Source: a virus
IMG/VR virus record: IMGVR_UViG_3300002835_000024
Reading direction: 5' to 3' (one strand)
DNA length: 64,000 nucleotides
The notes beneath the pieces were generated by a model. It saw nothing but the letters and a program-made list of their open reading frames with translations, had not been told where the DNA came from and made no database searches. A program made the translations under genes and the position numbers. Below are positions 10,005 to 58,765 of the stretch, in pieces; the stretch's first letter is position 1, and each line of letters starts with the position of its first letter.

Positions 10005-10007
10005 TTA

Positions 10008-10015
10008 TATAAATA
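10008..10015 (+). promoter_or_regulatory. Late promoter TATAAATA
   Basis: Exact consensus after gp20. Confidence 0.8.
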
Positions 10016-10038
10016 GAAAGAATTTTAGGAGATAACAA

Positions 10039-10731
10039 ATGTACGGTACACGTAAAAAAAGTAAAGGTAAATCTTCTTGTGCAGAAGATACAAGAGAACT
10101 TCTTAAACTTGCTCTTGAAGAAAAACCAAACGCTTTCCGAGAAGTATTTGACGAAATCATGCTCGCCAAGATCGTAGATATCTCTGACGAGATGAAAGAC
10201 GAGATCGCCCAGTCAATGTTCGGCGAAAGCCATGATCAGGATCGGACTGATGAAGCTTTAAACCACTGGGATGAACATGTTGCACCAAAACTGCATAAAG
10301 GCGGAAACATAAATCCACAATTTACAAAAGCAGTTGACAGACACGTAAAATTATATGGACCTCATCAAGTTTGGAACCACCACGGTCATGATGGCTGGGA
10401 AAATTCAGGATATCCCGATTGGTTTGACGCCGAAAAAAAAGAATGCAAACCATTAAAACGAGCTTGGGTGCCAATTGATGAACAATTAGAACTACGTTGG
10501 GTGCCAATTGATGAAGAACGCGAGCATACGCTTAAAAAAGAATCTTTCGAACCAGAAGAAGATGAAGTCGATGAAGACGAGGATTTCGATATCTCCGACG
10601 AAGATCTTGAAGATCTAGATCTCGACGATGAAGATTTTGAAGATGAAGAAATTTCAGAAATGAAAAAACACGAAAACGAAAAGGGCGACGAAAAGCACCC
10701 AAGAAAATATTCTAAAAAAGGCAAATCCTAA
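10039..10731 (+). CDS. Prohead core protein, gp67-like, acidic
   Basis: Position between gp20 and gp21; helical N-terminus and very acidic C-terminus. Confidence 0.55.
   Translation: MYGTRKKSKGKSSCAEDTRELLKLALEEKPNAFREVFDEIMLAKIVDISDEMKDEIAQSMFGESHDQDRTDEALNHWDEHVAPKLHKGGNINPQFTKAVDRHVKLYGPHQVWNHHGHDGWENSGYPDWFDAEKKECKPLKRAWVPIDEQLELRWVPIDEEREHTLKKESFEPEEDEVDEDEDFDISDEDLEDLDLDDEDFEDEEISEMKKHENEKGDEKHPRKYSKKGKS
10464..10515 (+). repeat. 19-nt direct repeat TTGGGTGCCAATTGATGAA (WVPIDE twice), 33-nt period
   Basis: Identical copies at 10464-10482 and 10497-10515. Confidence 0.9.
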
Positions 10732-21800: not shown

Positions 21801-22334
21801 ATGGAGGGTGTGATGGAAGAAATAGAAACGCTATCTTTGGTATCAGAAACAAATCCAATACTTCGTATGAACACAGAAGTGTTTGATTTTAAGAATCCTC
21901 CAACAAATCCTGTTATTTTGTATAGACAGATGGCAAATACAATGCTAAAGAATAATGGTATTGGATTGGCGGCACCACAAGTAGGTCTTCCATATAGAAT
22001 GTTTGTGATGAGAACTCATCCAGACGTTATTGGAGTATTCAATCCACTTTTGCTTGACACTTCCGAAGAAACCATTATACTAGAAGAAGGTTGTCTGAGT
22101 TTTGATATGCTTTTTATTAAAGTAAAAAGACCGAAACGTATTCGGGTTCGTTTTACAAATCCCGACGGGCAAACTGAAACTAGGGTGTTTGATGGTATGA
22201 CGGCTCGTTGTTTTCTTCACGAGTTGGACCATCTTAATGGAATTACCTATCTGCAAAAAGCAAATAAATTTCATATTGAGACCGCCAAGAAAAGACGCAA
22301 ACAAATTAAAGAAGAGAACCAAAGGATTGCATAA
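21801..22334 (+). CDS. def: Peptide deformylase
   Basis: GIGLAAPQVG, EGCLS, HELDHLNG. Confidence 0.93.
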   Translation: MEGVMEEIETLSLVSETNPILRMNTEVFDFKNPPTNPVILYRQMANTMLKNNGIGLAAPQVGLPYRMFVMRTHPDVIGVFNPLLLDTSEETIILEEGCLSFDMLFIKVKRPKRIRVRFTNPDGQTETRVFDGMTARCFLHELDHLNGITYLQKANKFHIETAKKRRKQIKEENQRIA

Positions 22335-23704
22335 TGGTTAAGGTGATTGTTGCAAAAGAGAAACATGACTGTGAACATTTGCTGGGGCAATATTTAGATG
22401 AGAGCCACTATGATATACTTGTACAAGAAGATACTGATTGCTTCATGCCTCCTGATTGTGACCTTGCTACTCAAATGCAATGTGATAAAAATTGCTCAGA
22501 CTGCCCCACAGGAAAGTCAGAAGCCAGAGTAGCATTTAAATTCCGCAAGAATTATTTCAATAAGAAAATGCAAAGAGACGCATACGAGGGTCTGCGCGAA
22601 GCTGCAACTGAATCACAGAATCGTGGTCTAGCTGCTGGCCCAAGAGGTCCGACTCTCAGTGTCGATGGTCGAGGCGGAAGAGATTGGGTCACTGATTATG
22701 AGCTTGAGATTCTAGACTTCTTTATGAATGAGCGCAGTTCTTTGTTTGACAAAGAAGATATTTCTTCAATCAAACAAAAATATGCAAAAAACAAAAGCAA
22801 ATCTGATGAGACACGCGGAACTGTTTGGCTGAGATCTCAGGTCACAAAACGATATCCTGAGTATCATGGCTGGTTTGATGTTTGGGTTGATGAGGTCCAA
22901 AAACTCCCCAGACAAAAACAAATTGCTGAAGCTACTGAGATTGCTACCAAATGGATATCTTTCACAAATTATGCAAAATCAGTATACTCTGGCGTTGCTG
23001 GCTGGTACGATAGATATCCTAGAATTCCTTTCGGAAGAGCGACATCATACACTCGTGATAATCCGGAAAAATTTGCCAAAGCTTTTCCGTTCCTACAAAA
23101 ACTCAATCAGGGTTATAAAGATTTGATGCCTTGGCGCTGGGGCAATCAAAAGGCTGCCTGTGATAAAATTGATAGCAGGTTTCTTGTACCAGAAACAGTA
23201 TTCACAACAATCACTGTGAACAAAAGCTTTAGGACTGCCGCGCATCGTGACGCTGGAGATTTTCAAGACGGTCTTTCAAATCTTCTTACTCTCGGAGACG
23301 GAGAATACACAGGCGGATATCTGATTTTCCCTGAATATCGAATCGCTGTTGATGTTCGCCCAGGAGATCTTCTTCTGGTAAACAATCATGAAATTATTCA
23401 TGGTAATACTGAGATCAAACTTAATTTCCCAGAAGCAGAAAGAGTTTCTATTGTTTGTTATTTCCGAGAAAAGATGTTGGAGCTTGGATCTTGGGAATAT
23501 GAGAGGACAAGAGAACAATATGTAGAGGATCGAAGAAAAAATAAAGATCATCCTCTGCAAAGACCATTGTGGAATGGAATCTCGCCTTCGATGTGGGATG
23601 AAAAAGAATGGTATGATTATTTGACTGACAAACTGGGCAAAAAAACGTTAGAGAAATATCACCCAGAAGCCTTTGTTTCTTCTCTTGATAGTTTCTTCAA
23701 CTAG
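22334..23704 (+). CDS. TET/JBP-family 2OG-Fe(II) dioxygenase (5-methylpyrimidine oxidase)
   Basis: HRD (HxD), GGYL-FPEY, HGNT, RVSIVCYFR signature; Cys-rich N-terminus. Confidence 0.8.
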   Translation: MVKVIVAKEKHDCEHLLGQYLDESHYDILVQEDTDCFMPPDCDLATQMQCDKNCSDCPTGKSEARVAFKFRKNYFNKKMQRDAYEGLREAATESQNRGLAAGPRGPTLSVDGRGGRDWVTDYELEILDFFMNERSSLFDKEDISSIKQKYAKNKSKSDETRGTVWLRSQVTKRYPEYHGWFDVWVDEVQKLPRQKQIAEATEIATKWISFTNYAKSVYSGVAGWYDRYPRIPFGRATSYTRDNPEKFAKAFPFLQKLNQGYKDLMPWRWGNQKAACDKIDSRFLVPETVFTTITVNKSFRTAAHRDAGDFQDGLSNLLTLGDGEYTGGYLIFPEYRIAVDVRPGDLLLVNNHEIIHGNTEIKLNFPEAERVSIVCYFREKMLELGSWEYERTREQYVEDRRKNKDHPLQRPLWNGISPSMWDEKEWYDYLTDKLGKKTLEKYHPEAFVSSLDSFFN

Positions 23705-23861
23705 GTTTTATAAATATGTCTACGATTAAACGTTGGGTGATTCTTGTTGTGTTTGTTTTACTCATATATCCTTTTTTAATCTTTTTTCATACAGGAATTT
23801 AAAAATAAACTTATAAATATTACTTAGCCGTTTTGTTTTTTATTTTTTCGGAGTATTTTCC

Positions 23862-24098
23862 ATGACAATTCTGAACAGGATTCTGGGCGCGTTTCAAAGA
23901 GCAAAAGATGATATTAAAAATCCATACACTCCGAGAAATGGCAGATTTTCAGCAGCTCAACAGATTGGGATGTTCTTAGATCCAGAAATGTTAAGGGGAA
24001 ACCGCCCAGTTCCAGGAACTTCTGAAGCCGAAAGAGATGCTAGAGAATTTCACAGATTGCAGAGAAATACAAACCGGAGGAGCAGACCACGAGGATAA
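23862..24098 (+). CDS. Small basic hypothetical protein preceded by late promoters (23709-23716, 23812-23819)
   Basis: GGAG RBS; two upstream TATAAATA. Confidence 0.55.
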   Translation: MTILNRILGAFQRAKDDIKNPYTPRNGRFSAAQQIGMFLDPEMLRGNRPVPGTSEAERDAREFHRLQRNTNRRSRPRG

Positions 24099-24117
24099 GA
24101 AATAAGGAATTTATATC

Positions 24118-24825
24118 ATGTGTTCTGTTATTGGGGCGTTTTTTGATCACCCATCAAAAAAACAATTGACTCTTCTGAAAAACGTTTTCATCGAATCTAA
24201 AATAAGAGGAATGCACGCAACAGGCATTTCTTATATTCAAAACAACGAAATTATAACAATAAAAAAACCAATTCCGTCTGACGAGTTCTTCAAAGATGTC
24301 GATTTTGAAGACCATTTTATCAATGAAGACGGCAATCTATACATGATTGGGCATTGTCGATATTCTACCTCAGACCTAGAATATAATCAGCCAATCTATA
24401 ATGATGACATTTCTATTGTTCACAATGGTGTGATCACACAGGAACTTCCAGAAAACTGGAAGTCCATTTACGACATTGTGTGTCAAACTAAAAACGATTC
24501 AGAATTTATTCTAAAGACTCTTGAGCAGAAAAAAGAACCTCTTTCTGCTTGGCCTGATACGTCTATGGCGGTTTGTGAATTATATTCTGACAAAAAGATT
24601 CGTTTTTATAGAAACGCTAAAAGACCGTTAACAATGGCTGTGTTTAATAATGGTGTTATTGTTTCTTCTACAAAAGATATTTTAAAAAGAGCGAATACAG
24701 TTGAAGAAGATTTTATAACGCTTGATTGTGACATGAATGTCATATATACTATAGATAGTCAAAGATTCCAAATTTCTAATGAGTTGATTTCTACGAACAG
24801 GAAAGATTTACAGTATGAATTATGA
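24118..24825 (+). CDS. Class II (Ntn) glutamine amidotransferase
   Basis: N-terminal MC, RG-HATG, GHCRYST, HNGVI, DSE. Confidence 0.85.
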   Translation: MCSVIGAFFDHPSKKQLTLLKNVFIESKIRGMHATGISYIQNNEIITIKKPIPSDEFFKDVDFEDHFINEDGNLYMIGHCRYSTSDLEYNQPIYNDDISIVHNGVITQELPENWKSIYDIVCQTKNDSEFILKTLEQKKEPLSAWPDTSMAVCELYSDKKIRFYRNAKRPLTMAVFNNGVIVSSTKDILKRANTVEEDFITLDCDMNVIYTIDSQRFQISNELISTNRKDLQYEL

Positions 24826-25690
24826 TCCTAAGAGTTTTACTTGGGGGTATGAAATAGAGTGGGGTGATATTGATCGTAGGCTGAATATTCCGGAACATCT
24901 CGGAAAATGGGAATATGCCGAAACAGATATTGTCAATATCAGAGAGCCATACAAATATATTGCTTGTGATCCATTGGGCCTTGATCCTCCTTTTGGTGGA
25001 GAAATCAACACAAAGCCCACTAAAACCTGGCAAGAGCAGGTTGATCGCATTATGGAAATTTATGAGCTCTTTGTTAAAAACGGCAACCAACCATCAGCAT
25101 CATGCGTCAACCACGGTCATCTTCACGTTTTTGTTCCTGGGCTGAAAAATGATATCGAAGGTCTAAAAAATCTAACCAAATATATTCGTCGAAATCAAAA
25201 AGAGACTATAGCTGCTTGTTATAGATTCTATGACGGATATAATATGAAAAAACTCAAAAACGCCACAACATATCTAAAGTTTGACGGTGGCCGAGAAATG
25301 CCAGATTATATGTGTAGCAACATTATAAATTTGGCGAAAGACTTCGACACTTTTATCAAATTGCAATGCGCAGGTAAAGATGGTATATCTATGGGTCGCC
25401 CACTTAGATACGCTATCAATACGTATTGTATGAAACATACAGGTACTATTGAGTTTAGATGTTTTCGTTCTACAACTAATAGATTGGAAATTGAATCTCA
25501 GTTTAAATTTGTAGAAAGATTTATTGACGCTGCTTTGAATAACGGACCAGATGTTTGGGAAATTTTAGCAGATGTTAGTTTAAAGTTCCCAGAATTCAAC
25601 TGGGATGATCTGGAATATGAAGGTTGGATTAAGACAAAATATGACAAATCACGCGGAGAGAAAAAACGCGAATTCCATGAAGTTGCGTAA
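24815..25690 (+). CDS. Amidoligase (COOH-NH2 ligase, Amidoligase_2-like)
   Basis: TWGYEIE, GEINTKP, HGHLHV, GTIEFR. Confidence 0.78.
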   Translation: MNYDPKSFTWGYEIEWGDIDRRLNIPEHLGKWEYAETDIVNIREPYKYIACDPLGLDPPFGGEINTKPTKTWQEQVDRIMEIYELFVKNGNQPSASCVNHGHLHVFVPGLKNDIEGLKNLTKYIRRNQKETIAACYRFYDGYNMKKLKNATTYLKFDGGREMPDYMCSNIINLAKDFDTFIKLQCAGKDGISMGRPLRYAINTYCMKHTGTIEFRCFRSTTNRLEIESQFKFVERFIDAALNNGPDVWEILADVSLKFPEFNWDDLEYEGWIKTKYDKSRGEKKREFHEVA

Positions 25691-26222
25691 GACTTCCAAA
25701 GAAGAATTCGTTCGCCATATTACCGACAAAAAAGAAGATAGATTCGCCAAGACTTTTGTGGCAAAGGCTAATATGCAGGATATCTGGGACAACTGTTATG
25801 GGTTGTGGCTAGAAGAAGATCTTTGTGGTGCTATAATCACAACAGTGTCCAAGAATTACCCCAAGATAATGAATCTTCAATTGCTGCACACATTTCATAA
25901 ACACAGAGGCTCAGGTGTTGGAAAGAAACTCTGTCAGTGGGCTTTGCAAAAAGCTGTTGATGATGGGGTGAATTACTTCAGAGTTTCAGCTGAGCCAGAT
26001 GCTGTTTTGTTTTATGAGAAATGTGGATTTGTATTTCAGGGTAGACAAAAATCAAATAGCCAACTTTCTATTTTTCGCATAATAGATAATAATTTTTCAA
26101 ACGGCGATTATTCTATCTCTGATCCTATCATAAACAAAGCAGTTTACAGAAAAGGCAAAGGTGGATGTGTAGAAGTGTTTGTTAAGTCTGAACAATCTGA
26201 TTTGGAAAAATTCTATGGATAG
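25677..26222 (+). CDS. GNAT acetyltransferase
   Basis: HRGSGVGKKL acetyl-CoA motif, AVLFYEKCGF; probable start ATG 25677. Confidence 0.85.
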   Translation: MKLRKTSKEEFVRHITDKKEDRFAKTFVAKANMQDIWDNCYGLWLEEDLCGAIITTVSKNYPKIMNLQLLHTFHKHRGSGVGKKLCQWALQKAVDDGVNYFRVSAEPDAVLFYEKCGFVFQGRQKSNSQLSIFRIIDNNFSNGDYSISDPIINKAVYRKGKGGCVEVFVKSEQSDLEKFYG

Positions 26223-27219
26223 CAGAGAGCTCTTTATTCGATGGTATGCATGGTCTCTGGAATATAAAGATTGTGATCCTTCTGTTTGGATGACAAATTA
26301 TCTTAATAAAAGATATCAGCATAATGACGAGGAAAGAATATGGCTTTGCTGGCTTTATGGTAACACATATTATCTTCCGACATCATGGGTGTTAAAGAAT
26401 GAGTTTCCCGATTATGAGTTGGCTACTGTAGATAGAATAACAAAATGGAACAACACCAACTATAAAAGACTTAGATATCAAACAGACACAAAATACAATA
26501 AAGGCCATTTGCCTTCTATGTTTGAGTCTTACCAAAAATATTTTGGAAACAAATTGCAAAGAGATGTATTAGAATCATTATACTCTGACAATGAAAAACA
26601 AAATTTCGATAATATATGGAATTCTGTAAATAAAAACTTCTATAAGTTTGGGAGATATACAACATGGTTTTATCTTCAACATCTTAAACATACCGCAGGA
26701 ATAAAAATAGAACCAACATCACTAATGCTGTCAGATTATTCTGGGAGTAAATCACACAGAAATGGTTTGTGTTATGCTCTAAGCAAACAAGATTGGATAA
26801 ATAATAAACTTACTGAGAAAGAATATCAGTGGCTGCAAGCAAAGAGCGACGATATTCTAATTGAAATGAGACAAAGATTTCCTCAGTTGTCCTCACAATT
26901 AGATTATTTTACTATGGAAACATGTCTCTGTAGTTTTAAGAAAATATTCAGAGAGAATTCTTCTAGATATTTGGGATATTATCTCGATAGACAAGCTGAA
27001 GAGATATCTACTGTTTCTTCTGATAGTTGGAACGGGATAGACTGGGACGTTTTGTGGCAAGCTCGAAAAGAAACTATTGATAAAAAGCTTGACAAACGCA
27101 CAGGAATAGACAAGAATAGGTTTGGCGAATACCTGAAGACTGGTTCCATTGATAGAGTAGAGTGGATGTTTAAAGATTCCGTTAAAAAAGATATTGGATT
27201 GGAGATGTTTTTCGCATGA
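26215..27219 (+). CDS. Alpha-glutamyl/putrescinyl-thymine pyrophosphorylase-like (aGPT-Pplase, amino acid:DNA transferase)
   Basis: DCDP, WL-WLYG-TY, FGRYTTWFYLQ (HhH-like), ETCLC-FKK, RYLGYY; adjacent kinase. Confidence 0.72.
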   Translation: MDSRELFIRWYAWSLEYKDCDPSVWMTNYLNKRYQHNDEERIWLCWLYGNTYYLPTSWVLKNEFPDYELATVDRITKWNNTNYKRLRYQTDTKYNKGHLPSMFESYQKYFGNKLQRDVLESLYSDNEKQNFDNIWNSVNKNFYKFGRYTTWFYLQHLKHTAGIKIEPTSLMLSDYSGSKSHRNGLCYALSKQDWINNKLTEKEYQWLQAKSDDILIEMRQRFPQLSSQLDYFTMETCLCSFKKIFRENSSRYLGYYLDRQAEEISTVSSDSWNGIDWDVLWQARKETIDKKLDKRTGIDKNRFGEYLKTGSIDRVEWMFKDSVKKDIGLEMFFA

Positions 27220-36277: not shown

Positions 36278-37360
36278 ATGTCTCTGATGGAAGCTATAAT
36301 TGACGTTCTCAACGCAAAAACTCCCCCATCGGCGGAGCAAAAAGCCAAACTTGATGAAAACGAAAGTCCGTTTGGTCCCTCCAAGCTTGCGATTAAATCT
36401 ATTATAGATAATATACCAAAAGTTTCAAGATATACTGATGAAATAGAAAAAACATTTCAAGAAGAAATATCGAAAAAAGATAAAATTCCTTCAAAACTGA
36501 TAACTGTTTCTAATGGATCTGATCCATTATTAAGAGTTTTTGGACAGATGATCGCCAAAGACGGGCAAGGACAGCTTATTGTTCCAAATACTACCTACGA
36601 ATCAGTAGTCACAGAATCTAAAAAATATGGAGCTTTGATAACTGGCGTTGATATGAACAAAGATTTGTCTATAAATTTAACAGCCATAGAAAACAAAATA
36701 AATAAACAAACCACTGGAATATATATTTGTAATCCCAACAACCCAACAGGTAATAAAGTTAACATAGCACAATTGAGAGATTTTATAGCACGAGTATCAA
36801 AATATACTCCATGTTTAATCGACGAAGCCTATATACATATGGTAGATAACTGGGAGAAAAACACCGTAATAGATATGGTCGAGAAATTCGATAATGTTAT
36901 GGTAACTCGAACGTTTTCCAAAATTTATGGACTGGCTGGACAAAGAATTGGTTATGCTGCAGCTAGTCCCAATTTAATGTATAAATTGAATAAAATTCTT
37001 CCCGGACCAGGTTTTACCAACTCTTTGGGGTTGTATGCGGCTTTAGCGAGCATGGAAGATCAGAAATTTTTACCTGACGCAAAGAACAAATTTAAAAAAG
37101 CCAGAAATTCAATTTATGATATAGTTAAAAATTTGGGTTTAGAAATGGCGGCTGATCCCCAGGCATGTTTTGTTTATTTCAATACCAAAATGAATGCAGA
37201 AAATTTTCAAAAACAAATGGCTAAATTCGGCGTTCTTGTTGTTGGAAGAGTTTGGGCTAAATATCCAACTTGGTCTCGCGTGTCAGTGGGATTAGACTGG
37301 GAGATAGACAAATTTAAAAACTCTATCGAGAAAGTAATTAAAGCGGAGAAACAAAAATAA
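36278..37360 (+). CDS. hisC: Histidinol-phosphate aminotransferase-like PLP enzyme, late promoter 36241-36248
   Basis: NESPFGPS, NGSD, CNPNNPTG, DEAY, RTFSKIYGLAG-RIGY. Confidence 0.85.
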   Translation: MSLMEAIIDVLNAKTPPSAEQKAKLDENESPFGPSKLAIKSIIDNIPKVSRYTDEIEKTFQEEISKKDKIPSKLITVSNGSDPLLRVFGQMIAKDGQGQLIVPNTTYESVVTESKKYGALITGVDMNKDLSINLTAIENKINKQTTGIYICNPNNPTGNKVNIAQLRDFIARVSKYTPCLIDEAYIHMVDNWEKNTVIDMVEKFDNVMVTRTFSKIYGLAGQRIGYAAASPNLMYKLNKILPGPGFTNSLGLYAALASMEDQKFLPDAKNKFKKARNSIYDIVKNLGLEMAADPQACFVYFNTKMNAENFQKQMAKFGVLVVGRVWAKYPTWSRVSVGLDWEIDKFKNSIEKVIKAEKQK

Positions 37361-48496: not shown

Positions 48497-48557
48497 CGTT
48501 TTTAGGCGTGTTTTGGCATTTATTAATGAAAATTAACGAAAAAGTTTGGGGTTAACG

Positions 48558-48767
48558 GAAAAAACCTAATAAAATCAGTCAAACATTACCAATATTTAAT
48601 GTTGAGGGGGATTTACTTCCTCTTCCATTGGGGTAGAATGGTCCTGTTCTGGGAAGGCTCTGTGACTATCGAGGCCGATCCTACCTGACTATCGGTTTGA
48701 TCACTGTCCGCAGATACCGCTGTTTGACATCGTGGAAAGATTGACGGGCCACCGATCTAGGTGTCCC
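48558..48767 (+). promoter_or_regulatory. Early promoter/leader copy 1: palindrome, TTTACT-N16-TAGAAT, boxA-like GCTGTTTGACA
   Basis: Homologous to 51561-51750. Confidence 0.65.
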
Positions 48768-48875
48768 ATGGGGCTCGCTGGGCTTAAACCCAGCGATGCC
48801 ATGTTTGTTGCGAAAGTCAGCTTAGTGCGCTGACGCCCCAAAACACGACTTTGTTGCATTTTTAAGCGCCTGGTT

Positions 48876-48953: not shown

Positions 48954-49457
48954 ATGTATACTGTTTATAAGATAACAAATTTGGTCAACCAAAAATATTA
49001 CATCGGCGTCCACAAAACAGATAACCCATATGATTCTTATATGGGGTCTGGATATGCAGTAAAATCCGCCATCAAAAAACACGGCAGAAAGAATTTTATA
49101 AAGGAAATTCTTTTTACCACAGTTGATAAAGAAGAAGCTTACGCTTTCGAGAAAAAATTAACTGAAGATTATATGACAAGAGATTCATATAATATGAAAA
49201 TTGGTGGCGTTGGAGGGTTTTCTAGAGAGAACGCTTTAAAGGGGCATGCCGCTTCTCTAAAGAAATTAACAAAACAACAACGTTCTGATAATGGAAAACT
49301 TGGTTACGCTGCAATGCTTCCCAAAATCAATCTAAATGAGATTGGCAGAAGGGGAGGTCAGGCTAACAGAGGCAAACCAAAATCCGAAGCGCATAAAGAA
49401 AAACTTCGGCAAGTTTGGAGAGACAAAAAAATAAGGGCGAGTCGCCAAGAGGTCTAA
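48954..49457 (+). CDS. GIY-YIG homing endonuclease (Seg-like) with late promoter 48923-48930
   Basis: VYKITN-KYYIGVH, YMGSG, YN-GG; NUMOD3-like KSEAHKEKL. Confidence 0.9.
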   Translation: MYTVYKITNLVNQKYYIGVHKTDNPYDSYMGSGYAVKSAIKKHGRKNFIKEILFTTVDKEEAYAFEKKLTEDYMTRDSYNMKIGGVGGFSRENALKGHAASLKKLTKQQRSDNGKLGYAAMLPKINLNEIGRRGGQANRGKPKSEAHKEKLRQVWRDKKIRASRQEV

Positions 49458-49511
49458 GGCCGCCACCTCATAAGTGGTTCATCGCAGGTTCAAATCCTGC
49501 CTCGCCTACCA
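49435..49511 (+). tRNA. tRNA-Met/Ile2(CAT)
   Basis: Cloverleaf GGGCGAG/CTCGCCT, loop CTCATAA, GTTCAAATC, CCA; overlaps the endonuclease 3' end. Confidence 0.85.
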
Positions 49512-49572: not shown

Positions 49573-49857
49573 ATGACCGTTGCCAACTTTGTCTCGAAAA
49601 AACCCTACTCGGGTCAAAACGTGGACATCCTTGAAGCTGCCGTGGAAGCTCGTGAGTTTAGCTCGAACTTCTTCCTGACTTATCGGCAAGCTCAAGAAAA
49701 CGGCTTCCAAGTCCGTAAGGGCGAATCGGGATTCATGATCACTCGTGTGGTTCTGGTTGAGGAAGCTGATAAGAAAACTGGTAAGAAGCGCATGATGAAA
49801 CGCCCAAAGCATTTCACAGTGTTTAACCTTGATCAGTGCGATAAAGTGGAAGCCTAA
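49573..49857 (+). CDS. ArdC-like N-terminal ssDNA-binding domain (DUF1738)
   Basis: PYSGQN, TYRQAQ-G-QVRKGE, FTVFNLDQ; AAGGA RBS. Confidence 0.8.
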   Translation: MTVANFVSKKPYSGQNVDILEAAVEAREFSSNFFLTYRQAQENGFQVRKGESGFMITRVVLVEEADKKTGKKRMMKRPKHFTVFNLDQCDKVEA

Positions 49858-49920
49858 GCTTCCATCTGACCCCAGTGGAAACCCACTGGGGTACAGGCGT
49901 AGTTGAAATGGAGAAAATGA

Positions 49921-50166
49921 ATGCAAACCGAAACGTCCAACGTAGAAGTCTTCGCTCTTATTGCAAGGCTTGAATGGAACGATTTCGAAGACTCTGACTA
50001 TCAGTCTTTCTCTGGCGTAATAAGCAAAACGCCTCTGATTGCTGAAGATGAAGAGCTTCAACTCATCTATGTCCTAGATGATCAGGTTCTGCAGGTGCTC
50101 GACTCCCGTGGTAATGTGAAGAAAATATACACTCTTCGCGCCACTGAAGCGATCAGAGCTCTGTAA
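49921..50166 (+). CDS. Hypothetical early protein
   Basis: GGAG RBS after hairpin 1. Confidence 0.65.
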   Translation: MQTETSNVEVFALIARLEWNDFEDSDYQSFSGVISKTPLIAEDEELQLIYVLDDQVLQVLDSRGNVKKIYTLRATEAIRAL

Positions 50167-50223
50167 TCTGCCTACCCCTACGCAAAAGCGTGGGGGTTTT
50201 GGCGTGTCTAATGGAGAAAAACT

Positions 50224-50448
50224 ATGTTTTCTAACTGGAAATACCGTGTATATGATACGGTAGAAAAGAAATATGCCATCAAGAAACGTTATGCTTCTGA
50301 TGCAGAAGCAATGGTCGCTGTAGAGCGTCTAAGACGTAGGCATAAAGACAGTCCCTTTGGCAGGTTCATGGTTCTTGTCGATCCTGGTATAAAGAAAAAA
50401 CGCCATAGTGACTATTATCAATCCCGAATCGTCTATGTCGGTGATTGA
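50224..50448 (+). CDS. Hypothetical early protein
   Basis: GGAG RBS after hairpin 2. Confidence 0.65.
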   Translation: MFSNWKYRVYDTVEKKYAIKKRYASDAEAMVAVERLRRRHKDSPFGRFMVLVDPGIKKKRHSDYYQSRIVYVGD

Positions 50449-50503
50449 TTCCTTACCCCAGCGAAAACTCGCTGGGGTCAAGGCGTAGTTAGGAGTGTGT
50501 AAC

Positions 50504-50605
50504 ATGAGAAATATAAACTGGGGTTTCATTTTCGGAATGCTATTCTGTGTGGCCTTTTGGCTATCAGTTATTGTTTCGATCAACATCTTGATTCAAGGAA
50601 ACTAA
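50504..50605 (+). CDS. 33-aa single-TM peptide (not in ORF track)
   Basis: AGGAG RBS after hairpin 3; MRNINWGFIFGMLF... Confidence 0.5.
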   Translation: MRNINWGFIFGMLFCVAFWLSVIVSINILIQGN

Positions 50606-50607
50606 TT

Positions 50608-50829
50608 ATGGAAACCTTTACCGTAGACAACGCTGCTATGGGTCGAGCCAAGGTCTGGGAATACAAACAGGAAGAAACTGTTCGTGAAATTCCCTGCCAG
50701 GGCTGTAAATTCATTGTTCGATGCACTGATTCGCTCACTGATTGCTTCGCCTTCAGGCGTTGGACTCATAGTGGTAACTACAGCGATCGCCAGATCAACC
50801 ATCTGGTTCGTCCTTTTGAAACGGAGTAA
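50608..50829 (+). CDS. Cys-rich hypothetical protein
   Basis: AAGGA RBS; PCQGC, C, C. Confidence 0.55.
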   Translation: METFTVDNAAMGRAKVWEYKQEETVREIPCQGCKFIVRCTDSLTDCFAFRRWTHSGNYSDRQINHLVRPFETE

Positions 50830-50832
50830 ATT

Positions 50833-51096
50833 ATGATCAATCGCAAACTCAAACTCATCGAAGAAAAAGGATCTATCAATACTCTTCGATTCGTCAACGA
50901 GATGACAAAACTTCCAGTTGGAATCATCTATAAGACGAGAGACGAAAAAGGAATACTCTGGCAAGTTGAAGCCTTTGATGACTTCAACGGCAAGACCAAG
51001 GGATTCCGAAGCTTGGAAGCGGCAAGATATTACTTGTGCGCTTTCGCCGTTGAGGCTTGGGAAGAAGAAGTCGCAGAGATGCGATTTGCGAGTTAA
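50833..51096 (+). CDS. Hypothetical protein
   Basis: GGAG RBS. Confidence 0.6.
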   Translation: MINRKLKLIEEKGSINTLRFVNEMTKLPVGIIYKTRDEKGILWQVEAFDDFNGKTKGFRSLEAARYYLCAFAVEAWEEEVAEMRFAS

Positions 51097-51161
51097 ACTC
51101 CTCACCCCACTGGAAACCCAGTGGGGTCGAGGCGTAGCTAAAGCATGTATGGAGAAAAATA

Positions 51162-51539
51162 ATGCTTCCTGCTGGTGAATACTATATCGGTGATCTTTGC
51201 TACGTCATTGATGACGAGAATTGGGATAACTTCTGTGCAATGACTTGTTTCGGGAACCATGTTCTCGATGGCGAGTTTAATTTCCAGGGTACTGCTATCG
51301 CTTGCTACGGAACTATGTACGGCGATGGTTGCTACAGAGATCAAACGGGCCACGAATATCCTGTGGATGCTGGTTTGATTGGTTGTATCCTTCTGAGCGA
51401 AATCACCAAACCAGAAGGTGTCGAACATGGAAGGGTTGTCACTTTTGAGAGATCTTTCAGAACGTTCAGTTATAGAGGCGTCATCGGGTTCGATAACGTC
51501 CAAATCGACACCAGCGATAACGAAAAAGACGAATATTAA
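51162..51539 (+). CDS. Hypothetical phage protein
   Basis: YYIGDLCYV, GDG-Y, VDAGLIG; after hairpin 4. Confidence 0.7.
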   Translation: MLPAGEYYIGDLCYVIDDENWDNFCAMTCFGNHVLDGEFNFQGTAIACYGTMYGDGCYRDQTGHEYPVDAGLIGCILLSEITKPEGVEHGRVVTFERSFRTFSYRGVIGFDNVQIDTSDNEKDEY

Positions 51540-51560
51540 CGAAAAATATTCGTCCCTGCA

Positions 51561-51750
51561 GAAAAAACCTAATAAAATCAGTCCAACATTACGAAGATTT
51601 AATGTTGGAGGGGTTTACTTCCTCGTTCGATAGGGTAGAATGGTTGTGTTCTGGAAGGGTTCAGTGACTATCGAGACCTGCCTTCGGGCACTCCCAGTTC
51701 CACTGTTTGACATTGTAGAGAGACTGACGCGACCTCCGCCTAGGAGGCGC
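51561..51750 (+). promoter_or_regulatory. Early promoter/leader copy 2: palindrome, TTTACT-N16-TAGAAT, UUCG hairpin, boxA-like ACTGTTTGACA
   Basis: Homologous to 48558-48767. Confidence 0.65.
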
Positions 51751-51830
51751 AATTGCCGACCTCACCCCAGTGGAAACCCACTGGGGTAGAGGCGTAGCTA
51801 GCAATCAGGCTAGAATGAGGAAACTTGATT

Positions 51831-51992
51831 ATGAAAAATGCGAAAAAAGCTGCTGCTCCGTTTGTTATCAAGCACAAGAATGCCAGGACTGGCCAGACTT
51901 TTGTGCTGACGTATACTGATGGTGAAGTTGCGCGTCGCGCTTCTGCTTACTTCACCGAACTCGGTATCGAACATAAGCTGATCGCTGCTTAA
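51831..51992 (+). CDS. 53-aa basic protein (not in ORF track)
   Basis: GAGG RBS after hairpin 5. Confidence 0.6.
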   Translation: MKNAKKAAAPFVIKHKNARTGQTFVLTYTDGEVARRASAYFTELGIEHKLIAA

Positions 51993-52041
51993 TTACCCGC
52001 CCACCCCACTGGAAACCCAGTGGGGTCGAGGCGTAGTTAGA

Positions 52042-52230
52042 ATGGAGAAACTTATGTCTAAGATGGCTATCTTCTTTCAAGAAACTGGTGAAGAAGGAAT
52101 CATCCACTATAATGATGGGGAAACCCTAGAACAGCTTCTAGAGCGTTCTCCCCCTGAGTGGCGATATCGCTACACAGAAACTCCTCGTCGTTATCAGTAC
52201 GATCCTGATCGTGATGATTACGATTACTGA
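52042..52230 (+). CDS. Hypothetical protein (start probably 52054)
   Basis: After hairpin 6. Confidence 0.55.
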   Translation: MEKLMSKMAIFFQETGEEGIIHYNDGETLEQLLERSPPEWRYRYTETPRRYQYDPDRDDYDY

Positions 52231-52301
52231 TCGACCTCACCCCAGTGGAAACCCACTGGGGTAGAGGCGTAGCTGAATTAGCAGCAAATGGAGAATATTG
52301 A

Positions 52302-52532
52302 ATGGCTAAGTCCCGTGTCCAACGCATCCGCAGCCTTGCTAACGCTTTCGAGCGTATCACTCGCGGTGTGATCGTTACGGATAATCTCCTCAATACCTAC
52401 TTCGATAAGAAAGCTGATGAGATAGAGGCGTTCAACGCCGAGCTCACTGATGTTCTTACTACGAAAGAGGAGCTCGTCGAGCCTACCGAAACGGTAGTTC
52501 GCGCAGCGAAACGACGTAAGAAAAGGTCGTAA
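52302..52532 (+). CDS. Hypothetical protein
   Basis: GGAG RBS after hairpin 7. Confidence 0.65.
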   Translation: MAKSRVQRIRSLANAFERITRGVIVTDNLLNTYFDKKADEIEAFNAELTDVLTTKEELVEPTETVVRAAKRRKKRS

Positions 52533-52593
52533 CGCCCAACACCCCAGCAGAAACCTGCTGGGGTAGAGGCGTAGTTGAAAGAAGGAAATCGAT

Positions 52594-52812
52594 ATGACCT
52601 GTCTTAAAACTATCTGCGAACTCGCCGCCAAAGTTGGTGTCGATTTAACTGGTAAGCTGACTCGTTCAGAAATGAGACGAGTGATATGGGATCATTATGA
52701 CGAGAAGCATCGCGAAGCTTATGCTGCTGGTCTGCGTGATCTAATATGGATAACTCAAGCTGATATTGATCTGCTTGATTCTTTAGAAATTAGCAGCTTC
52801 AGAAAGCCTTAA
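52594..52812 (+). CDS. Hypothetical protein
   Basis: AAGGA RBS after hairpin 8. Confidence 0.6.
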   Translation: MTCLKTICELAAKVGVDLTGKLTRSEMRRVIWDHYDEKHREAYAAGLRDLIWITQADIDLLDSLEISSFRKP

Positions 52813-52821
52813 TTTCCTTGA

Positions 52822-52909
52822 GCGGGCGTGGCGAAATTGGTAGACGCACCAGACTTAAAATCTGTTAGGCCGTAGGCCTGTGTCGGTTCGAGTCCGATCG
52901 CCCGCACCA
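52822..52909 (+). tRNA. tRNA-Leu(TAA)
   Basis: Long variable arm, loop CTTAAAA, GTTCGAGTC, CCA. Confidence 0.93.
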
Positions 52910-52914
52910 ATTAA

Positions 52915-52989
52915 GGTCCCTTCGTCTATCGGTTAGGACGCTAGGTTTTCAACCTAGAAAGACGGGTTCGACTCCCGTAGGGACTACCA
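52915..52989 (+). tRNA. tRNA-Glu(TTC)
   Basis: Loop TTTTCAA, GTTCGACTC, CCA. Confidence 0.93.
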
Positions 52990-53056
52990 ATCACATAACC
53001 TTCGCCCCAGCGAAAACTCGCTGGGGTAGAGGCGTAGCTAGAATGGAGAAAAACAT

Positions 53057-53917
53057 ATGCTACTTCGAATATTCGGAGTTGTTCTGATCGTTGCTGGTTT
53101 CGGTCTGGCAGCGATATCTGGCTATCTGGCGTATTTCGGTTTTGAGCACACCATCAAGCTGCCATTTATCGGTATGATTGGTCCCTTCGTGGCCCTTTCG
53201 CTGGCTTCTCTCGGCGTTGCCGTCGAGGTTGCCTTTCGTCGCCGTAAGTGGTTGGCCTTCGTGCCCCTGTTCGCTCTGATGGTTGTTGCTGGTTTGATCG
53301 ATAAGAATGGTGGCGAGATCGCCCTCAAGAATATCGTCAACGACGCGACCCAAGGTGACTCTGACCGTAATACTGCCTATAGTACAGCTCTTTCTACCAA
53401 AGCCGATCTTGAGAAACAGATCGCAGACCTTGAGGCTGAATACAAGGTTATGACTGGTAGCGATATCGCTGCCGCCCAGGAAGTCCTGTTGGCGCGTGGT
53501 CTGTATGTTGATGCGGCTGGAAATCCGATGCCCATCGACGGAAAGCGTGGCCCCTTTACGTTGAAAGCTATGGCTGATCGTGGAAAGGCTATCACTGCGG
53601 AACTGGGTAATGTCCGTAGTGATCTTAAGAGTGCGACGGCAACGGTCGCCTCTGGTGCTGCAGTTACTGAAGCACCCTTTACCCTCCACCAAGCAGAGCT
53701 CTATGCTCTGATGATCACAGTCATGTCTGTGCTCTTTGCGATGGCTGGTTCTTTCGTTTACGGCGGTTTCGGCGACGATGAGCCGAATATCGATGAAGAA
53801 ATCGAGCAGGTCGAAGAAATTGCTTCCAAGATGGAAAACAATATCGTTCGCCTTGCAGAGCACTTCGGTGCCTTCGAATTCGACGATGAGCCTGCAGCCA
53901 AGCGCAAGCGTGGATAA
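53057..53917 (+). CDS. Multi-TM membrane protein with coiled coil and peptidoglycan-binding-like motif
   Basis: Three N-terminal TMs, AQEVL-RGLY...IDGKRGPFT, C-terminal TM; after hairpin 9. Confidence 0.65.
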   Translation: MLLRIFGVVLIVAGFGLAAISGYLAYFGFEHTIKLPFIGMIGPFVALSLASLGVAVEVAFRRRKWLAFVPLFALMVVAGLIDKNGGEIALKNIVNDATQGDSDRNTAYSTALSTKADLEKQIADLEAEYKVMTGSDIAAAQEVLLARGLYVDAAGNPMPIDGKRGPFTLKAMADRGKAITAELGNVRSDLKSATATVASGAAVTEAPFTLHQAELYALMITVMSVLFAMAGSFVYGGFGDDEPNIDEEIEQVEEIASKMENNIVRLAEHFGAFEFDDEPAAKRKRG

Positions 53918-53983
53918 TCGACCCGTAAGGGTGGCACTACCTCTACCCCTGCTCAAACGAGTGGGGGTAGAGTCGTAGTTAGA

Positions 53984-54313
53984 ATGGAGAAACAAATGGC
54001 TGATATTGAAATTGTTGCATCTGATGGACATGGAATCTACCTTCCTCAGCATGTCGCCGGATCTTGCGGCGCTGAGTTGTTTCCGATAAGGAACAACCCA
54101 AAGAATGCAAACCAGCTTAAAGAATGCATCAACATTCTTATGAGTGGTCCTACAAACAACGACTATTGGGAAGCTTGGCACTGGGTGTTGGATAATGCCT
54201 GCATAAAAGTCAATCGTTCGCGTTGGTCTCTTTACCAAGACGGAGATTGTTGGGCTATTCCAATGAACAAAAAAGGTCGTCAAGAGGCCGCAAAATTGTT
54301 TGGCTGGGAATAA
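53984..54313 (+). CDS. Hypothetical phage protein (start probably 53996)
   Basis: GIYLPQ, GP-YWEAW, LYQDGD; after hairpin 10. Confidence 0.65.
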   Translation: MEKQMADIEIVASDGHGIYLPQHVAGSCGAELFPIRNNPKNANQLKECINILMSGPTNNDYWEAWHWVLDNACIKVNRSRWSLYQDGDCWAIPMNKKGRQEAAKLFGWE

Positions 54314-54510
54314 TGGAGAAATATATGATAACGCAGACACGTTATGAGATATTTGGTGAGCTCAAAAACGGAGAGGTTGTTCACTGTTTCGTTTGGCGAG
54401 GAACTCCTGAAGATGGTATTCGCCGAGCCGAGAGAGACGCAAGACTTTTCGGTAAATCTTTTAAAAGGTTTTGGAGCCAACCTATTCAGGTTCAACAAAC
54501 ATTCGTCTAA
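54223..54510 (+). CDS. Hypothetical protein (start probably ~54325)
   Basis: ATGGAGAAAT RBS before MITQTRY. Confidence 0.5.
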   Translation: MVSLPRRRLLGYSNEQKRSSRGRKIVWLGIMEKYMITQTRYEIFGELKNGEVVHCFVWRGTPEDGIRRAERDARLFGKSFKRFWSQPIQVQQTFV

Positions 54511-54513
54511 ATT

Positions 54514-54542
54514 AAAACCCAGCCCAGCGCTGGGTTTTTTTT
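54514..54542 (+). terminator. Rho-independent terminator ending the hairpin-array operon
   Basis: AAAACCCAGC-CCAGC-GCTGGGTTTT followed by T-tract. Confidence 0.8.
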
Positions 54543-54551
54543 CATTTTTGT

Positions 54552-54580
54552 TTGACTTCTCGGAATCAATAAGGTATAAT
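54552..54580 (+). promoter_or_regulatory. Sigma70-like promoter TTGACT-N17-TATAAT
   Basis: Near-consensus. Confidence 0.75.
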
Positions 54581-56633: not shown

Positions 56634-57346
56634 ATCCCCCCTAACTTTGAAAAGGATTAAATATGATAGGACAGTACGATGAAAATTGAGCTAGGCACCG
56701 ATTCCGGTGATTATGAATTGCTGCGCGAGGCGGTGCAGTTGGCGCCGAACGGCTACTACCTTGCCACCGAGATCGGCGTGCGAGAAGGCGGCTCCACCCA
56801 AATGATTATGGAAGAGCTTGCCGCGAAGAAGTTTCGCGGGATGCTGACCCTGATCGACCACTACGGTGGGATGCCGCAATGGCACTCGGATACAGAGTGT
56901 GTCGTGCTCGACTACACGAACGAAATGCGTAACCGAGCGATGTCGTCGATCTACCAGTTGGCCAACCACCACAAGATCAACTTCCAGTTTTTCAATCTGG
57001 CCGACGACGACTTCTTCGCCTTCTTTCCAGACGGCGTACCGATCTATAGCGGCGGTGTGCGGATGTTGGTGAACGAATACTGTTTCGCTCACTTGGACGG
57101 CCCGCACCGCGTAGAACTGGTGGAGAAGGAAGCCGCGTTTTTCGCACCACGCATGGTGAGGGGTGGTGTGATCGTCACTGACGACATCCAACTCTTCAAC
57201 TTCAAACAGTTCACCAAGTTCGCCAAGACTATTGGCCTAGAGCTTGTGAAGAAGGGCGGCCTCAAAGCGGTGTTCCAGAAGCAATGACGTTGTCGCCTCG
57301 AAGCTAAAACCAAAGAGGCAGGCGAGATACCTGTCGTCCGCTCCAA
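56595..57346 (+). mobile_element. Islet flanked by 40-bp direct repeats of the tRNA-Gly 3' half (56595-56634; 57307-57346)
   Basis: Identical AAACCAAAGAGGCAGGCGAGATACCTGTCGTCCGCTCCAA; cargo visibly more GC-rich. Confidence 0.8.
56679..57287 (+). CDS. Class I SAM-dependent methyltransferase (Methyltransf_24-like)
   Basis: EIGVREGGS, HLDGPH, GGVIVTDD. Confidence 0.8.
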   Translation: MKIELGTDSGDYELLREAVQLAPNGYYLATEIGVREGGSTQMIMEELAAKKFRGMLTLIDHYGGMPQWHSDTECVVLDYTNEMRNRAMSSIYQLANHHKINFQFFNLADDDFFAFFPDGVPIYSGGVRMLVNEYCFAHLDGPHRVELVEKEAAFFAPRMVRGGVIVTDDIQLFNFKQFTKFAKTIGLELVKKGGLKAVFQKQ

Positions 57347-57357
57347 AGGACAATATC

Positions 57358-57708
57358 TTGATGAAGTTTTCCTTTATAAAAGAAACCAGAAAATGGGTTG
57401 TCGATACATTCGGCAAAGAATCAATCTTAAACAAAAAGATTCGTAATGAGAGATTTCTGGAAGAGTGTCTAGAATTGGTGCAATCTTGCAACATGACTAA
57501 AGAGGATGCTTCCAAGATTCTTGATTATGTTTATTCCAGACCGAAAGGAAAAATGGAACAAGAAGTTGGCGGTGTAATGGTTACTTTCGCCGCCCATGCT
57601 AGCTGTTATAATTATGATCCAGATTTTTGCGGCAAGTTAGAAATAGCTAGATGCTGGAAAAAGCAAGAAGAAATTAGACAGAAAAATTCTGAAAAGCCAA
57701 ACCTATAA
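57358..57708 (+). CDS. MazG-like NTP pyrophosphohydrolase-fold protein
   Basis: RFLEE-LEL, QEVGGV. Confidence 0.5.
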   Translation: MMKFSFIKETRKWVVDTFGKESILNKKIRNERFLEECLELVQSCNMTKEDASKILDYVYSRPKGKMEQEVGGVMVTFAAHASCYNYDPDFCGKLEIARCWKKQEEIRQKNSEKPNL

Positions 57709-57721
57709 TAAAGGAATTGTT

Positions 57722-58765
57722 ATGAGAGAATACCTTGATTTTCAAGACGTACTGCTGCTGCCTGAAATGTTCTCTAGACTGAATTCAAGATCTCAACCAC
57801 AACTACACACATCTGAAAACTCTGTGCCTCTATCGATAGCCAATATGGAAAATATTGGAACTCTTAAAGTGGCAAAGATTGCATCGGCTCGTGGTTGGAA
57901 AACATACATCGACAAACACGTTTCCATCATTGATTGGAGAACGTTTATCAAAGAATCAGATTGGTCTTTGGTCAAAAATGTTATTCCAACCTTTGGGTTT
58001 ACAGATCAAGACTTTGCAAAGATGAAAGAGATTTGGTATCTTCTGAGCGAGAAGTTTGTTCTTTGTGATAAGACTGTTTGTTTTGATTTGGCCAATGGAC
58101 ATTCGGATAACTTTTGGACCTCCACAATCAGATTTTTGAGAGAAGCGCCATTCAAAAATGTTATTTTTGGAAATCTGGGTAACGCGGAGACAATTCATTA
58201 TTTGATTGCATATCTCCGAGCTCGAGAATCTTTTCCAAATATCAAATCAATAGGACTGAAGTTTGGTATTGGTTCTGGCTCAGTTTGCACAACAAGATTG
58301 ATGACTGGAGTCGGCGCTCCTCAATATAGTCTTATTTGTGATGCGAGAAAACAACTAGAAGCTTGCAAAAAAGAAAACGAAAAGCTTTTCGAAAACGTTT
58401 ATATCATTTCCGATGGTGGCATTCGCAATCCCGGAGATGTAACAAAAGCTTTTGTGGCGGGTGCCCATGAGGTTATGATGGGCGGAATGTTTGCTGGTTT
58501 GACTGAAACTGGAAATAAGTTTTATGGTTCTTCTAGTGAAGAGTCTAAATCTTATAAACCAGAGAATAAATATTCTTCACCAGAAGGTAAATCTGTTTTG
58601 ATTTCCAGAAACATGAGCGTTGAGGAAAGAATCACTGAGATTGAAAACGGACTTCGTTCTGCCATGACATATTTAAATATTGCCTGTGTTGACGATCTCA
58701 TCAAAGACTATTATTATCTTCAAAATAATGTTGTGAAAGTTAGGAGACAAACGGATAATTACTAG
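57722..58765 (+). CDS. guaC: GMP reductase / IMPDH-family enzyme lacking CBS domains
   Basis: LDF-DVLLLP, SRS, ANM, D-ANGH, GIGSGSVCTTR, SDGG, GLRSAMTY. Confidence 0.85.
   Translation: MREYLDFQDVLLLPEMFSRLNSRSQPQLHTSENSVPLSIANMENIGTLKVAKIASARGWKTYIDKHVSIIDWRTFIKESDWSLVKNVIPTFGFTDQDFAKMKEIWYLLSEKFVLCDKTVCFDLANGHSDNFWTSTIRFLREAPFKNVIFGNLGNAETIHYLIAYLRARESFPNIKSIGLKFGIGSGSVCTTRLMTGVGAPQYSLICDARKQLEACKKENEKLFENVYIISDGGIRNPGDVTKAFVAGAHEVMMGGMFAGLTETGNKFYGSSSEESKSYKPENKYSSPEGKSVLISRNMSVEERITEIENGLRSAMTYLNIACVDDLIKDYYYLQNNVVKVRRQTDNY

Follow-up and report, generated by a model that had tools for sequence, protein, structure and literature searches.

Architecture and conservation of the hairpin elements

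We analyzed a 64-kb window (the whole stretch of DNA under study) from IMG/VR record IMGVR_UViG_3300002835_000024, a partial genome of an uncultured phage. Genes lie on the + strand throughout the window and include structural and packaging genes (neck protein, gp15, a split large terminase, sheath, portal gp20, prohead protease, scaffold, and major capsid protein gp23) together with replication and recombination genes (UvsW, gp46/47-like proteins, clamp, clamp loader, DNA polymerase gp43, UvsX, and helicase gp41). The portal protein is at most ~53% identical to that of any deposited phage, and the window is part of a divergent T4-like myovirus genome. In the hyperplastic early region of this phage sits an array of short genes punctuated by ten related hairpin elements, first noted in an original prediction made from the DNA letters, and it is these elements and the gene cassettes between them that we describe here.

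All ten of the predicted elements were located, each on the coding (+) strand and together spanning 49862–53979 (Table 1), and the fixed geometry of stem and loop attributed to them was borne out. Single copies are named by the position of the first C of the CCCC in the stem, as in 50175. Read 5′ to 3′, an element consists of a pyrimidine-rich flank ending in A, the bases CCCC, five variable bases, a loop, five complementary bases, GGGG, a tail, a ribosome-binding site (RBS), and a start codon. The stem comprises 9 bp plus one A-U pair and is closed by a 4-nt loop that reads AAAC in nine copies and AAAA in the tenth. A conserved box, GGCGTAG or GGCGTGT, stands between the hairpin and the Shine-Dalgarno sequence. 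The tail is generally TAGAGGCGTAG or a near variant. It had been described as constant, which proved too strict, because although AGGCGTAG is found exactly in eight of the ten copies, element 50175 carries TTTTGGCGTGT, seen once and containing a U4 tract, and element 53946 carries AGTCGTAG. The RBS given as usual is indeed spelled ATGGAGAA in seven of the ten copies, and a GGAG-type Shine-Dalgarno sequence stands 7–9 nt ahead of ATG in every one. Most elements had also been placed directly after a stop codon; seven begin 7–12 nt and 53946 begins 28 nt past one, whereas 51765 is preceded by a conserved 5′ leader and 53005 by tRNA-Glu, so that neither of these two has an upstream cistron. The median distance is 8 nt from stop to stem and 29 nt from stem to start.

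Within the array the 15-mer GGGGTNNAGGCGTAG occurs eight times exactly and ten times with up to three mismatches, against a chance expectation of 3.5 matches with up to three mismatches in the whole window. A covariance model (CM) built from 42 copies and run on the 64-kb window with filters off returned exactly the ten elements, at 46.5–55.6 bits and E values of about 1e-11 to 1e-13; the next best match, at 18 bits, was the reverse strand of one of the ten. Representative copies gave fold z scores of −4 to −6 relative to shuffled sequence, and the RNA fold of element 51765 was calculated at −35.7 kcal/mol (z = −5.3).

An exact scan of IMG/VR with the 15-mer yielded 32 matches, all of them chance or coding and none with a hairpin. 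Relatives were found by a structure-aware pattern in which the inner stem was left free, and this detected family members in four viral contigs, which stand for three distinct phages, and in five further metagenome fragments. Each 30–65-kb contig carries a single array of 10–14 elements in 4–6 kb on one strand, and the locus is constant, flanked by the gp41 helicase/phosphoesterase block and, downstream, by a conserved block. Conservation is higher in the elements than in the genes that they flank (38–80% identity for cassette proteins, 66–82% for gp41). No described family was matched in Rfam or in phage genomes: only tRNAs reached the Rfam gathering score, even at E up to 5 no match overlapped an element or the leader, and a nucleotide search of 50,697 deposited phage genomes with the 4.9-kb region and a 71-nt element gave tRNA matches or noise only. 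A pattern scan of prokaryotes (one genome per species, 185,579 species) found unrelated hairpins only and no family member; a repeat that it returned from one Omnitrophota metagenome-assembled genome has a different sequence and was rejected.

When 59 distinct copies from the phage and its relatives are compared, pairing holds at the four variable positions of the stem in 235 of 236 cells, and each position shows four to five pair types. The covariation score of 0.507 compares with 0.145 in column shuffles, none of 500 of which reached the observed value, and with 0.10 or less in slid registers. There are 25 distinct stem alleles, essentially all paired. All 29 wobble cells are G·U or U·G on the + strand and A·C mismatches on the other strand, and wobble-bearing copies fold more poorly on the − strand; in element 50175, likewise, the + strand folds better than the − strand. 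The compensatory changes and G-U wobbles originally listed are all correct. Taken together, the compensated pairs and the wobble asymmetry show that the hairpin has been selected as a sense-strand structure, most simply RNA, in line with the early suggestion of a single-stranded structured element.

Other parts of the element do not vary in this way. The CCCC/GGGG base of the stem is invariant in 59 of 59 distinct copies, the A at loop position 19 is also invariant, and at least 90% conservation is seen for A18 and A20 in the loop and for C37 and T39 in the tail. The predicted outward extension of the stem as CCTC/GAGG is real, since the true flanks contribute 2.8 kcal/mol more than shuffled ones do (p = 3e-10), but it is weaker than the core, with 46–80% of copies paired per position across the outer pairings CCTC/GAGG, CCTT/AAGG, CTG/CAG, and CTCTA/TAGAG. 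When flank pairing is included, the predicted imperfect helices total 13–22 bp.

Other classes of repeat were considered and rejected. A protein-binding palindrome in double-stranded DNA would need neither compensated inner pairs nor strand-specific wobbles. An array of the CRISPR (clustered regularly interspaced short palindromic repeats) type does not fit a spacing of 236–941 nt with intervals that carry open reading frames (ORFs), nor does a miniature inverted-repeat transposable element fit copies that are always intergenic, in a single orientation, and in fixed register with stop and start codons.

Table 1. Hairpin elements, transcription signals, and cassette genes of the array. F numbers are protein families; the position of the first C of the stem follows each element number.
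Feature	Coordinates	Strand	Details
Element 1 (49870)	49862–49903	+	flank CTGA; hairpin CCCCAGTGG-AAAC-CCACTGGGG; tail TACAGGCGTAGT; RBS ATGGAGAA at 49908; CM 51.7 bits
Element 2 (50175)	50167–50208	+	hairpin CCCCTACGC-AAAA-GCGTGGGGG (U·G wobble); U-type tail TTTTGGCGTGTC; RBS at 50211; CM 49.1 bits
Element 3 (50456)	50448–50489	+	hairpin CCCCAGCGA-AAAC-TCGCTGGGG; tail TCAAGGCGTAGT; RBS TAGGAG; CM 55.6 bits
Element 4 (51105)	51097–51138	+	hairpin CCCCACTGG-AAAC-CCAGTGGGG; tail TCGAGGCGTAGC; RBS at 51149; CM 54.3 bits
Element 5 (51765)	51757–51798	+	hairpin CCCCAGTGG-AAAC-CCACTGGGG; tail TAGAGGCGTAGC; directly after second promoter/leader; CM 54.2 bits
Element 6 (52004)	51996–52037	+	hairpin CCCCACTGG-AAAC-CCAGTGGGG; tail TCGAGGCGTAGT; RBS at 52042; CM 49.7 bits
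Element 7 (52240)	52232–52273	+	42-nt core same as element 5; RBS at 52288; CM 54.2 bits
Element 8 (52542)	52534–52575	+	hairpin CCCCAGCAG-AAAC-CTGCTGGGG; tail TAGAGGCGTAGT; RBS AGAAGGAAA; CM 53.2 bits
Element 9 (53005)	52997–53038	+	hairpin CCCCAGCGA-AAAC-TCGCTGGGG; tail TAGAGGCGTAGC; 15 nt past tRNA-Glu; RBS at 53043; CM 51.9 bits
Element 10 (53946)	53938–53979	+	14-bp perfect helix CTCTACCCCTGCTC-AAAC-GAGTGGGGGTAGAG (U·G and G·U wobbles); tail TCGTAGT; RBS at 53984; CM 46.5 bits
Promoter/leader copy 1	48528–48768	+	palindrome AACATTAC..TTTAATGTT; TTTACT-N16-TAGAAT; leader block CTGTTTGACATCGTG..GATTGACG and hairpin; direct repeat families D2, D3, D5
Promoter/leader copy 2	51531–51751	+	TTTACT-N16-TAGAAT at 51614–51641; from promoter scan and direct repeats
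Terminator and promoter	54514–54580	+	10-bp stem, then 8-T run (4 more T's in stem 3′ arm); sigma-70 TTGACT-17-TATAAT; distal end of array unit
ArdC-N-like gene, 94 aa	49573–49857	+	Pfam PF08401, E = 1e-18; phrog_7245; just upstream of element 1
Cassette ORF, 81 aa (F16)	49921–50166	+	homologue in G1 at different array position
Cassette ORF, 74 aa	50224–50448	+	BLASTP 51% identity, E = 2e-19, to 76-aa ORF present in L057, absent from G1
Three ORFs without element between: 33 aa (hydrophobic), 73 aa (F17), 87 aa (F18)	50504–51096	+	F17 and F18 parted by elements and other cassettes in G1
Cassette ORF, 125 aa	51162–51539	+	phrog_20074, function unknown
Cassette ORF, 53 aa (F4)	51831–51992	+	in 4/4 arrays compared
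Cassette ORF, 58–62 aa	52054–52230	+	only in this phage among those compared
Cassette ORF, 76 aa (F5)	52302–52532	+	in 4/4 arrays; F4..F5 order here reversed versus F5-F4 in relatives
Cassette ORF, 72 aa (F7)	52594–52812	+	array position differs between phages
tRNA-Leu(TAA) and tRNA-Glu(TTC)	52822–52989	+	ARAGORN, Rfam; non-protein cassette within array
Cassette ORF, 286 aa (F6)	53057–53917	+	in 4/4 arrays; ends look hydrophobic by eye
Cassette ORF, 105–109 aa	53996–54313	+	after element 10

Cassette exchange at the elements

Gene order is not invariant among the four phages compared. Families F5-F4-F6 appear in that order in three of them, as opposed to F4-x-F5-F7-tRNAs-F6 in the present array, and F7, F11, F12, F13, and F14 each stand at different positions in different phages. 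Single events could be followed in fragments ~99% identical to the relative G1. In L057 there is an extra 289-bp cassette with a 76-aa ORF, made up of a 244-nt unique segment and a second element copy, and it is bounded by a perfect 31-nt direct repeat that takes in stop codon, spacer, and hairpin. A cassette is missing from L133, with the crossover within the tail/RBS part of two elements, and L141 has an extra cassette after the leader with identical hairpins on both sides. G1 itself has lost a cassette by an imprecise deletion whose start coincides exactly with a hairpin's 5′ edge and which spares the final 9 nt of the ORF. These four junctions fall at three different positions. As earlier suspected, the elements bound cassettes that are shuffled among relatives, and the genome comparisons show them to be the sites at which these phages gain, lose, and reorder entire single-gene cassettes.

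We also compared the stems with the genes on either side. Stem identity goes with the downstream gene in 7 of 21 pairs; for the upstream gene the figure is 4 of 29, and the background is 28 of 686. This pattern is suggestive, in a sample too small to tie the hairpin to either neighbour. The stem of element 53005 also stands before the orthologous 286-aa gene in G1.

Transcription of the array and the role of the hairpin

A promoter/leader unit of ~220 nt, with an operator-like palindrome and a sigma-70-type promoter, is duplicated in the window and conserved in relatives. It is also doubled in G1, where one copy lies ahead of the array (L047 6101–6343) and the other mid-array (9822–10043), and copy 2 of the window shares 82–84% identity with the leaders found mid-array in G1, L141, and L168. 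Within the leader, which is ~120 nt long, a CCTCC/GGAGG hairpin comes after an invariant block, CTGTTTGACATTGTG..GATTGACG, and the leader could be a processive-antitermination or regulatory one. From this layout, copy 1 would feed the first half of the array and copy 2 the second half, and because the promoter/leader is duplicated and a terminator stands at 54514, the elements lie inside two predicted polycistronic units that end there. The array of G1 likewise closes with a long-U terminator followed by TTGACT-17-TATAAT (L047 12925–12995).

A promoter scan found no site inside any of the ten elements, and TTGACT-17-TATAAT and TTTACT-16-TAGAAT were found nearby. The lack of an internal promoter, which had been predicted, is upheld by the median gap of 29 nt between stem and start, because this is too short to hold −35 and −10 hexamers plus a leader with a Shine-Dalgarno sequence. 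In nine of the ten copies the 9 nt that follow the extended (A-U) stem include a single T, and only 50175 has TTTT, as TTTTGG. Terminators of the window, at 54514, 61291, 38496, and 15298, carry T-runs, some of them with UUCG loops. Judged by these flanks, the element is not a canonical terminator in this phage.

We consider it probable that the ten repeats are promoter-less intercistronic connectors in a polycistronic early mRNA, where they would act as RNA. Two sigma-70-type promoters with a conserved leader would transcribe the array as polycistronic mRNA ending at an ordinary terminator. Within this message the hairpin would serve as punctuation, shielding the upstream cistron at its 3′ end and/or the downstream cistron at its 5′ end after endonucleolytic processing, and it would insulate a standard RBS from whichever gene lies upstream. 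Any cassette dropped between two connectors would thereby be expressed. Such a role would not be tied to one neighbour, because elements also follow the leader or a tRNA and, in relatives, end the array without a downstream ORF. With compensation in the RNA hairpin so nearly perfect, the selected function would have to reside in the message, whether in stability, processing, insulation of translation, or a specific reader. A sequence-specific reader is suggested by the unchanging CCCC/GGGG base and the A-rich loop.

Several observations weigh against the connector reading. Copying of whole hairpins between sites partly inflates the apparent covariation, even with the 25 alleles still paired; G·T pairs form in DNA as well, so that folded sense-strand DNA is also compatible with the data; and the invariant base and loop are not accounted for by a purely thermodynamic role. 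In addition, U-rich tails (TTTT, TTTC, or ATTT) occur in 15 of the 55 distinct family copies. The earlier statement that the hairpins lack a U-tract thus fits nine of the ten copies here but neither 50175 nor the family as a whole, and some U-tailed copies may attenuate transcription.

That the elements in general are leaky intrinsic terminators or attenuators, through which a leader-modified antiterminating RNA polymerase reads so as to time or grade successive cassettes, strikes us as rather unlikely. The hairpin is G+C-rich and placed 6–12 nt past stop codons, the U-rich stretches come right after the stem, with TTTTGG in 50175, and each half of the array opens with the conserved leader and its invariant block and hairpin, all of which would suit attenuation. 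However, the nine copies without a U-tract still keep their hairpin under strict compensation, the clade has ordinary long-U terminators where transcription really stops, and the leader has no match in Rfam at the threshold given above; moreover, efficient termination would leave the downstream genes, which lack individual promoters, silent. In another reading, selection would have acted on recognition and not on stability, with the hairpin and a GGCGUAG box bound or cleaved by a single dedicated protein, which might be a translational repressor of the phage or an endoribonuclease specific for the hairpin. In keeping with this, the base stays the same while the inner 5 bp vary freely, and the conservation of base, loop, and tail persists across phages in which gp41 is only 66–82% identical. 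Yet the tail box exists in two or more interchangeable forms (CGTAGT, CGTGTC, CATTGT), and no candidate reader emerged: ESM Atlas look-ups and family scans of F4 and F5, the small proteins present in every array, gave no RNA-binding reader lead and no informative family or fold. We judge this reading, with recognition as the selected property, to be unlikely. A wider scheme, which we offer as a tentative possibility, would have the hairpin and GGCGUAG box read by a dedicated RNA-binding or RNA-cleaving factor that cuts the early transcript into individually stabilized, translated messages; the same module would be a recombinase-free adaptor for foreign genes and one example of a widespread, unrecognized "connector" class in phage early regions.

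The mobility of the cassettes bears on two further readings. Like integron attC sites, the elements are imperfect palindromes bounding promoter-less, single-gene cassettes that are expressed from a shared upstream promoter, cassette order differs among relatives, and one strand folds better than the other; the original prediction had allowed for an attC-like unit, in which a site-specific recombinase moves cassettes by way of folded single-strand DNA. The better-folding strand is, however, the mRNA-sense strand, and there is neither a GTTRRRY-type core nor a pattern of extrahelical bases. Crossover points are not fixed, falling in the hairpin, in the tail/RBS, and, for the imprecise deletion, at the hairpin edge with an imprecise partner. 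Phage_integrase (PF00589) and Resolvase (PF00239) had no match in 146 kb of contigs from three relatives (G001–G003; partial genomes), and Pfam scans of the window ORFs tested, mostly at least 200 aa and likewise from a partial genome, revealed no recombinase family. The attC-like proposal gained no support from these comparisons and appears highly improbable. Because crossover points vary and no recombinase was found, the exchange fits a homology-driven process carried out by the phage's own recombination system, as proposed for the promoter-early stem-loops (PeSLs) of T4-type phages. PeSLs are defined by a sigma-70-like early promoter between stem-loop and Shine-Dalgarno sequence; crossover at variable positions inside the element has been reported for them, with homology-driven exchange proposed, and their features also include terminator activity of the stem-loop and mini-circle formation (Arbiol, Comeau and Krisch 2010, PMC2839356; Comeau et al. 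2014, PMC4122927). There is very little chance, in our estimation, that the present elements are simply ordinary PeSLs, with stem-loop terminator and early promoter, in which the promoter is too divergent to recognize. Location and behaviour do match, and TAGAAT, a good −10 hexamer, stands just before GGAG in 52004, 53005, and 53946 and before GAGG in 51765, but no −35 hexamer lies 16–18 nt from TAGAAT, a transcript starting 7 nt past it would begin within or after the Shine-Dalgarno sequence, the whole gap from stem to ATG is as short as noted above, and clear TTGACT/TTTACT-N16-17-TATAAT/TAGAAT promoters exist elsewhere in the phage.

The relation to PeSLs is nevertheless close. Both are repeated composite intergenic cassettes of ~50–60 nt in hyperplastic regions of T4-like phages; both run from stop codon through stem-loop and Shine-Dalgarno sequence to start codon and flank ORFans; and both are found where close relatives differ by indels and gene swaps, the crossovers falling at various points inside the element. 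The differences are that the elements here have no sigma-70 promoter and mostly no U-tract, relying for expression on shared upstream promoters with a leader, and that their stem is strictly compensated, with an invariant base and an A-rich loop and without sequence similarity to published PeSLs. The separation from T4-type PeSLs drawn in the original prediction holds, since the definition of a PeSL requires a promoter and the elements contain none. We rate the elements as a variant of the PeSL type that lacks the promoter and represents a new sequence family. The units at 54514–54580 and at L047 12925–12995 are recognizable as true PeSL-like units, ahead of the first conserved gene downstream of the array.

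In the early polycistronic mRNA of phage T7, processing sites for RNase III were reportedly described by Dunn and Studier. These sites and the present elements would be alike in forming a series of related hairpins between early genes on one long transcript with a single terminator, and in having imperfect helices, predicted ones in the present case, that are interrupted by a bulge or internal loop on the 3′ side. The lower stem here is short and variable, and the predicted helices of 13–22 bp are compatible with the T7 analogy of the original prediction, for which an imperfect double helix of about two turns is expected. A further parallel is found in the start-associated sequences (SAS) and extended SAS (ESAS) of Cluster K mycobacteriophages, which are also conserved, oriented repeats that take in the RBS of non-structural genes, an inverted repeat often lying directly ahead, and are also confined to one phage clade. 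For ESAS, the changes seen in the arms gave no support to an RNA hairpin (Pope et al. 2011, PMC3203893), whereas compensation here is essentially complete, and sequences and hosts are unrelated. The 13-bp GGGATAGGAGCCC of SAS is absent from the elements, and tail and RBS differ.

The elements thus display PeSL-like evolutionary behaviour without a promoter, although PeSLs were defined by one. A module of ~60 nt appears to make any inserted gene expressible, which bears on the acquisition by phages of anti-defence and host-takeover genes, and the element could serve as a standard part for polycistronic expression. Concrete cassettes and breakpoints are supplied by the near-identical strains.

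Cassette genes and other features of the window

Nearly all cassette proteins are ORFans by PHROGs and Pfam. The ORFs of the array (49573–54510) have a G+C content of 46%, also 46% at third codon positions, versus 39% and 36%, respectively, for the core genes, a contrast that is consistent with a foreign origin of the cassettes. In G1 (L047 12803–12900) and in a second relative, G2 (L048 10545–10640), the last element is followed by a conserved non-coding segment of ~100 nt (GTCCCTAGTACCACTC...GGGATAGCAGGGCTCGCG), without an ORF, before the canonical terminator; this segment is a candidate small RNA carried as a cassette. The gp41-like helicase of G2 (L048 330–2478) is called as two pieces of 214 aa and 401 aa, ~300 nt apart, a split that points to an insertion, intron, or frameshift.

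Just upstream of the array, a gene for a GIY-YIG (SegE-like) homing endonuclease (48954–49511) overlaps the start of tRNA-Met(CAT). Downstream of it, 56679–58765 holds genes for an S-adenosylmethionine-dependent methyltransferase (Methyltransf_24) and a member of the IMPDH/GMP-reductase family, both of them possible auxiliary metabolic genes. Farther away, a TET/JBP dioxygenase, a glutamine amidotransferase, a GNAT acetyltransferase, and an amino-acid:DNA transferase (PF18724) are encoded at 22334–27219 and a class I/II aminotransferase at 36278–37360, a set resembling a pathway for the hypermodification of DNA bases. The large terminase is split into an N-terminal ATPase domain (2479–3402) and a C-terminal nuclease domain (3954–5153) with a 198-aa ORF (3368–3964) between them, and the interruption may represent an intron, an intein, or a homing-endonuclease insertion.

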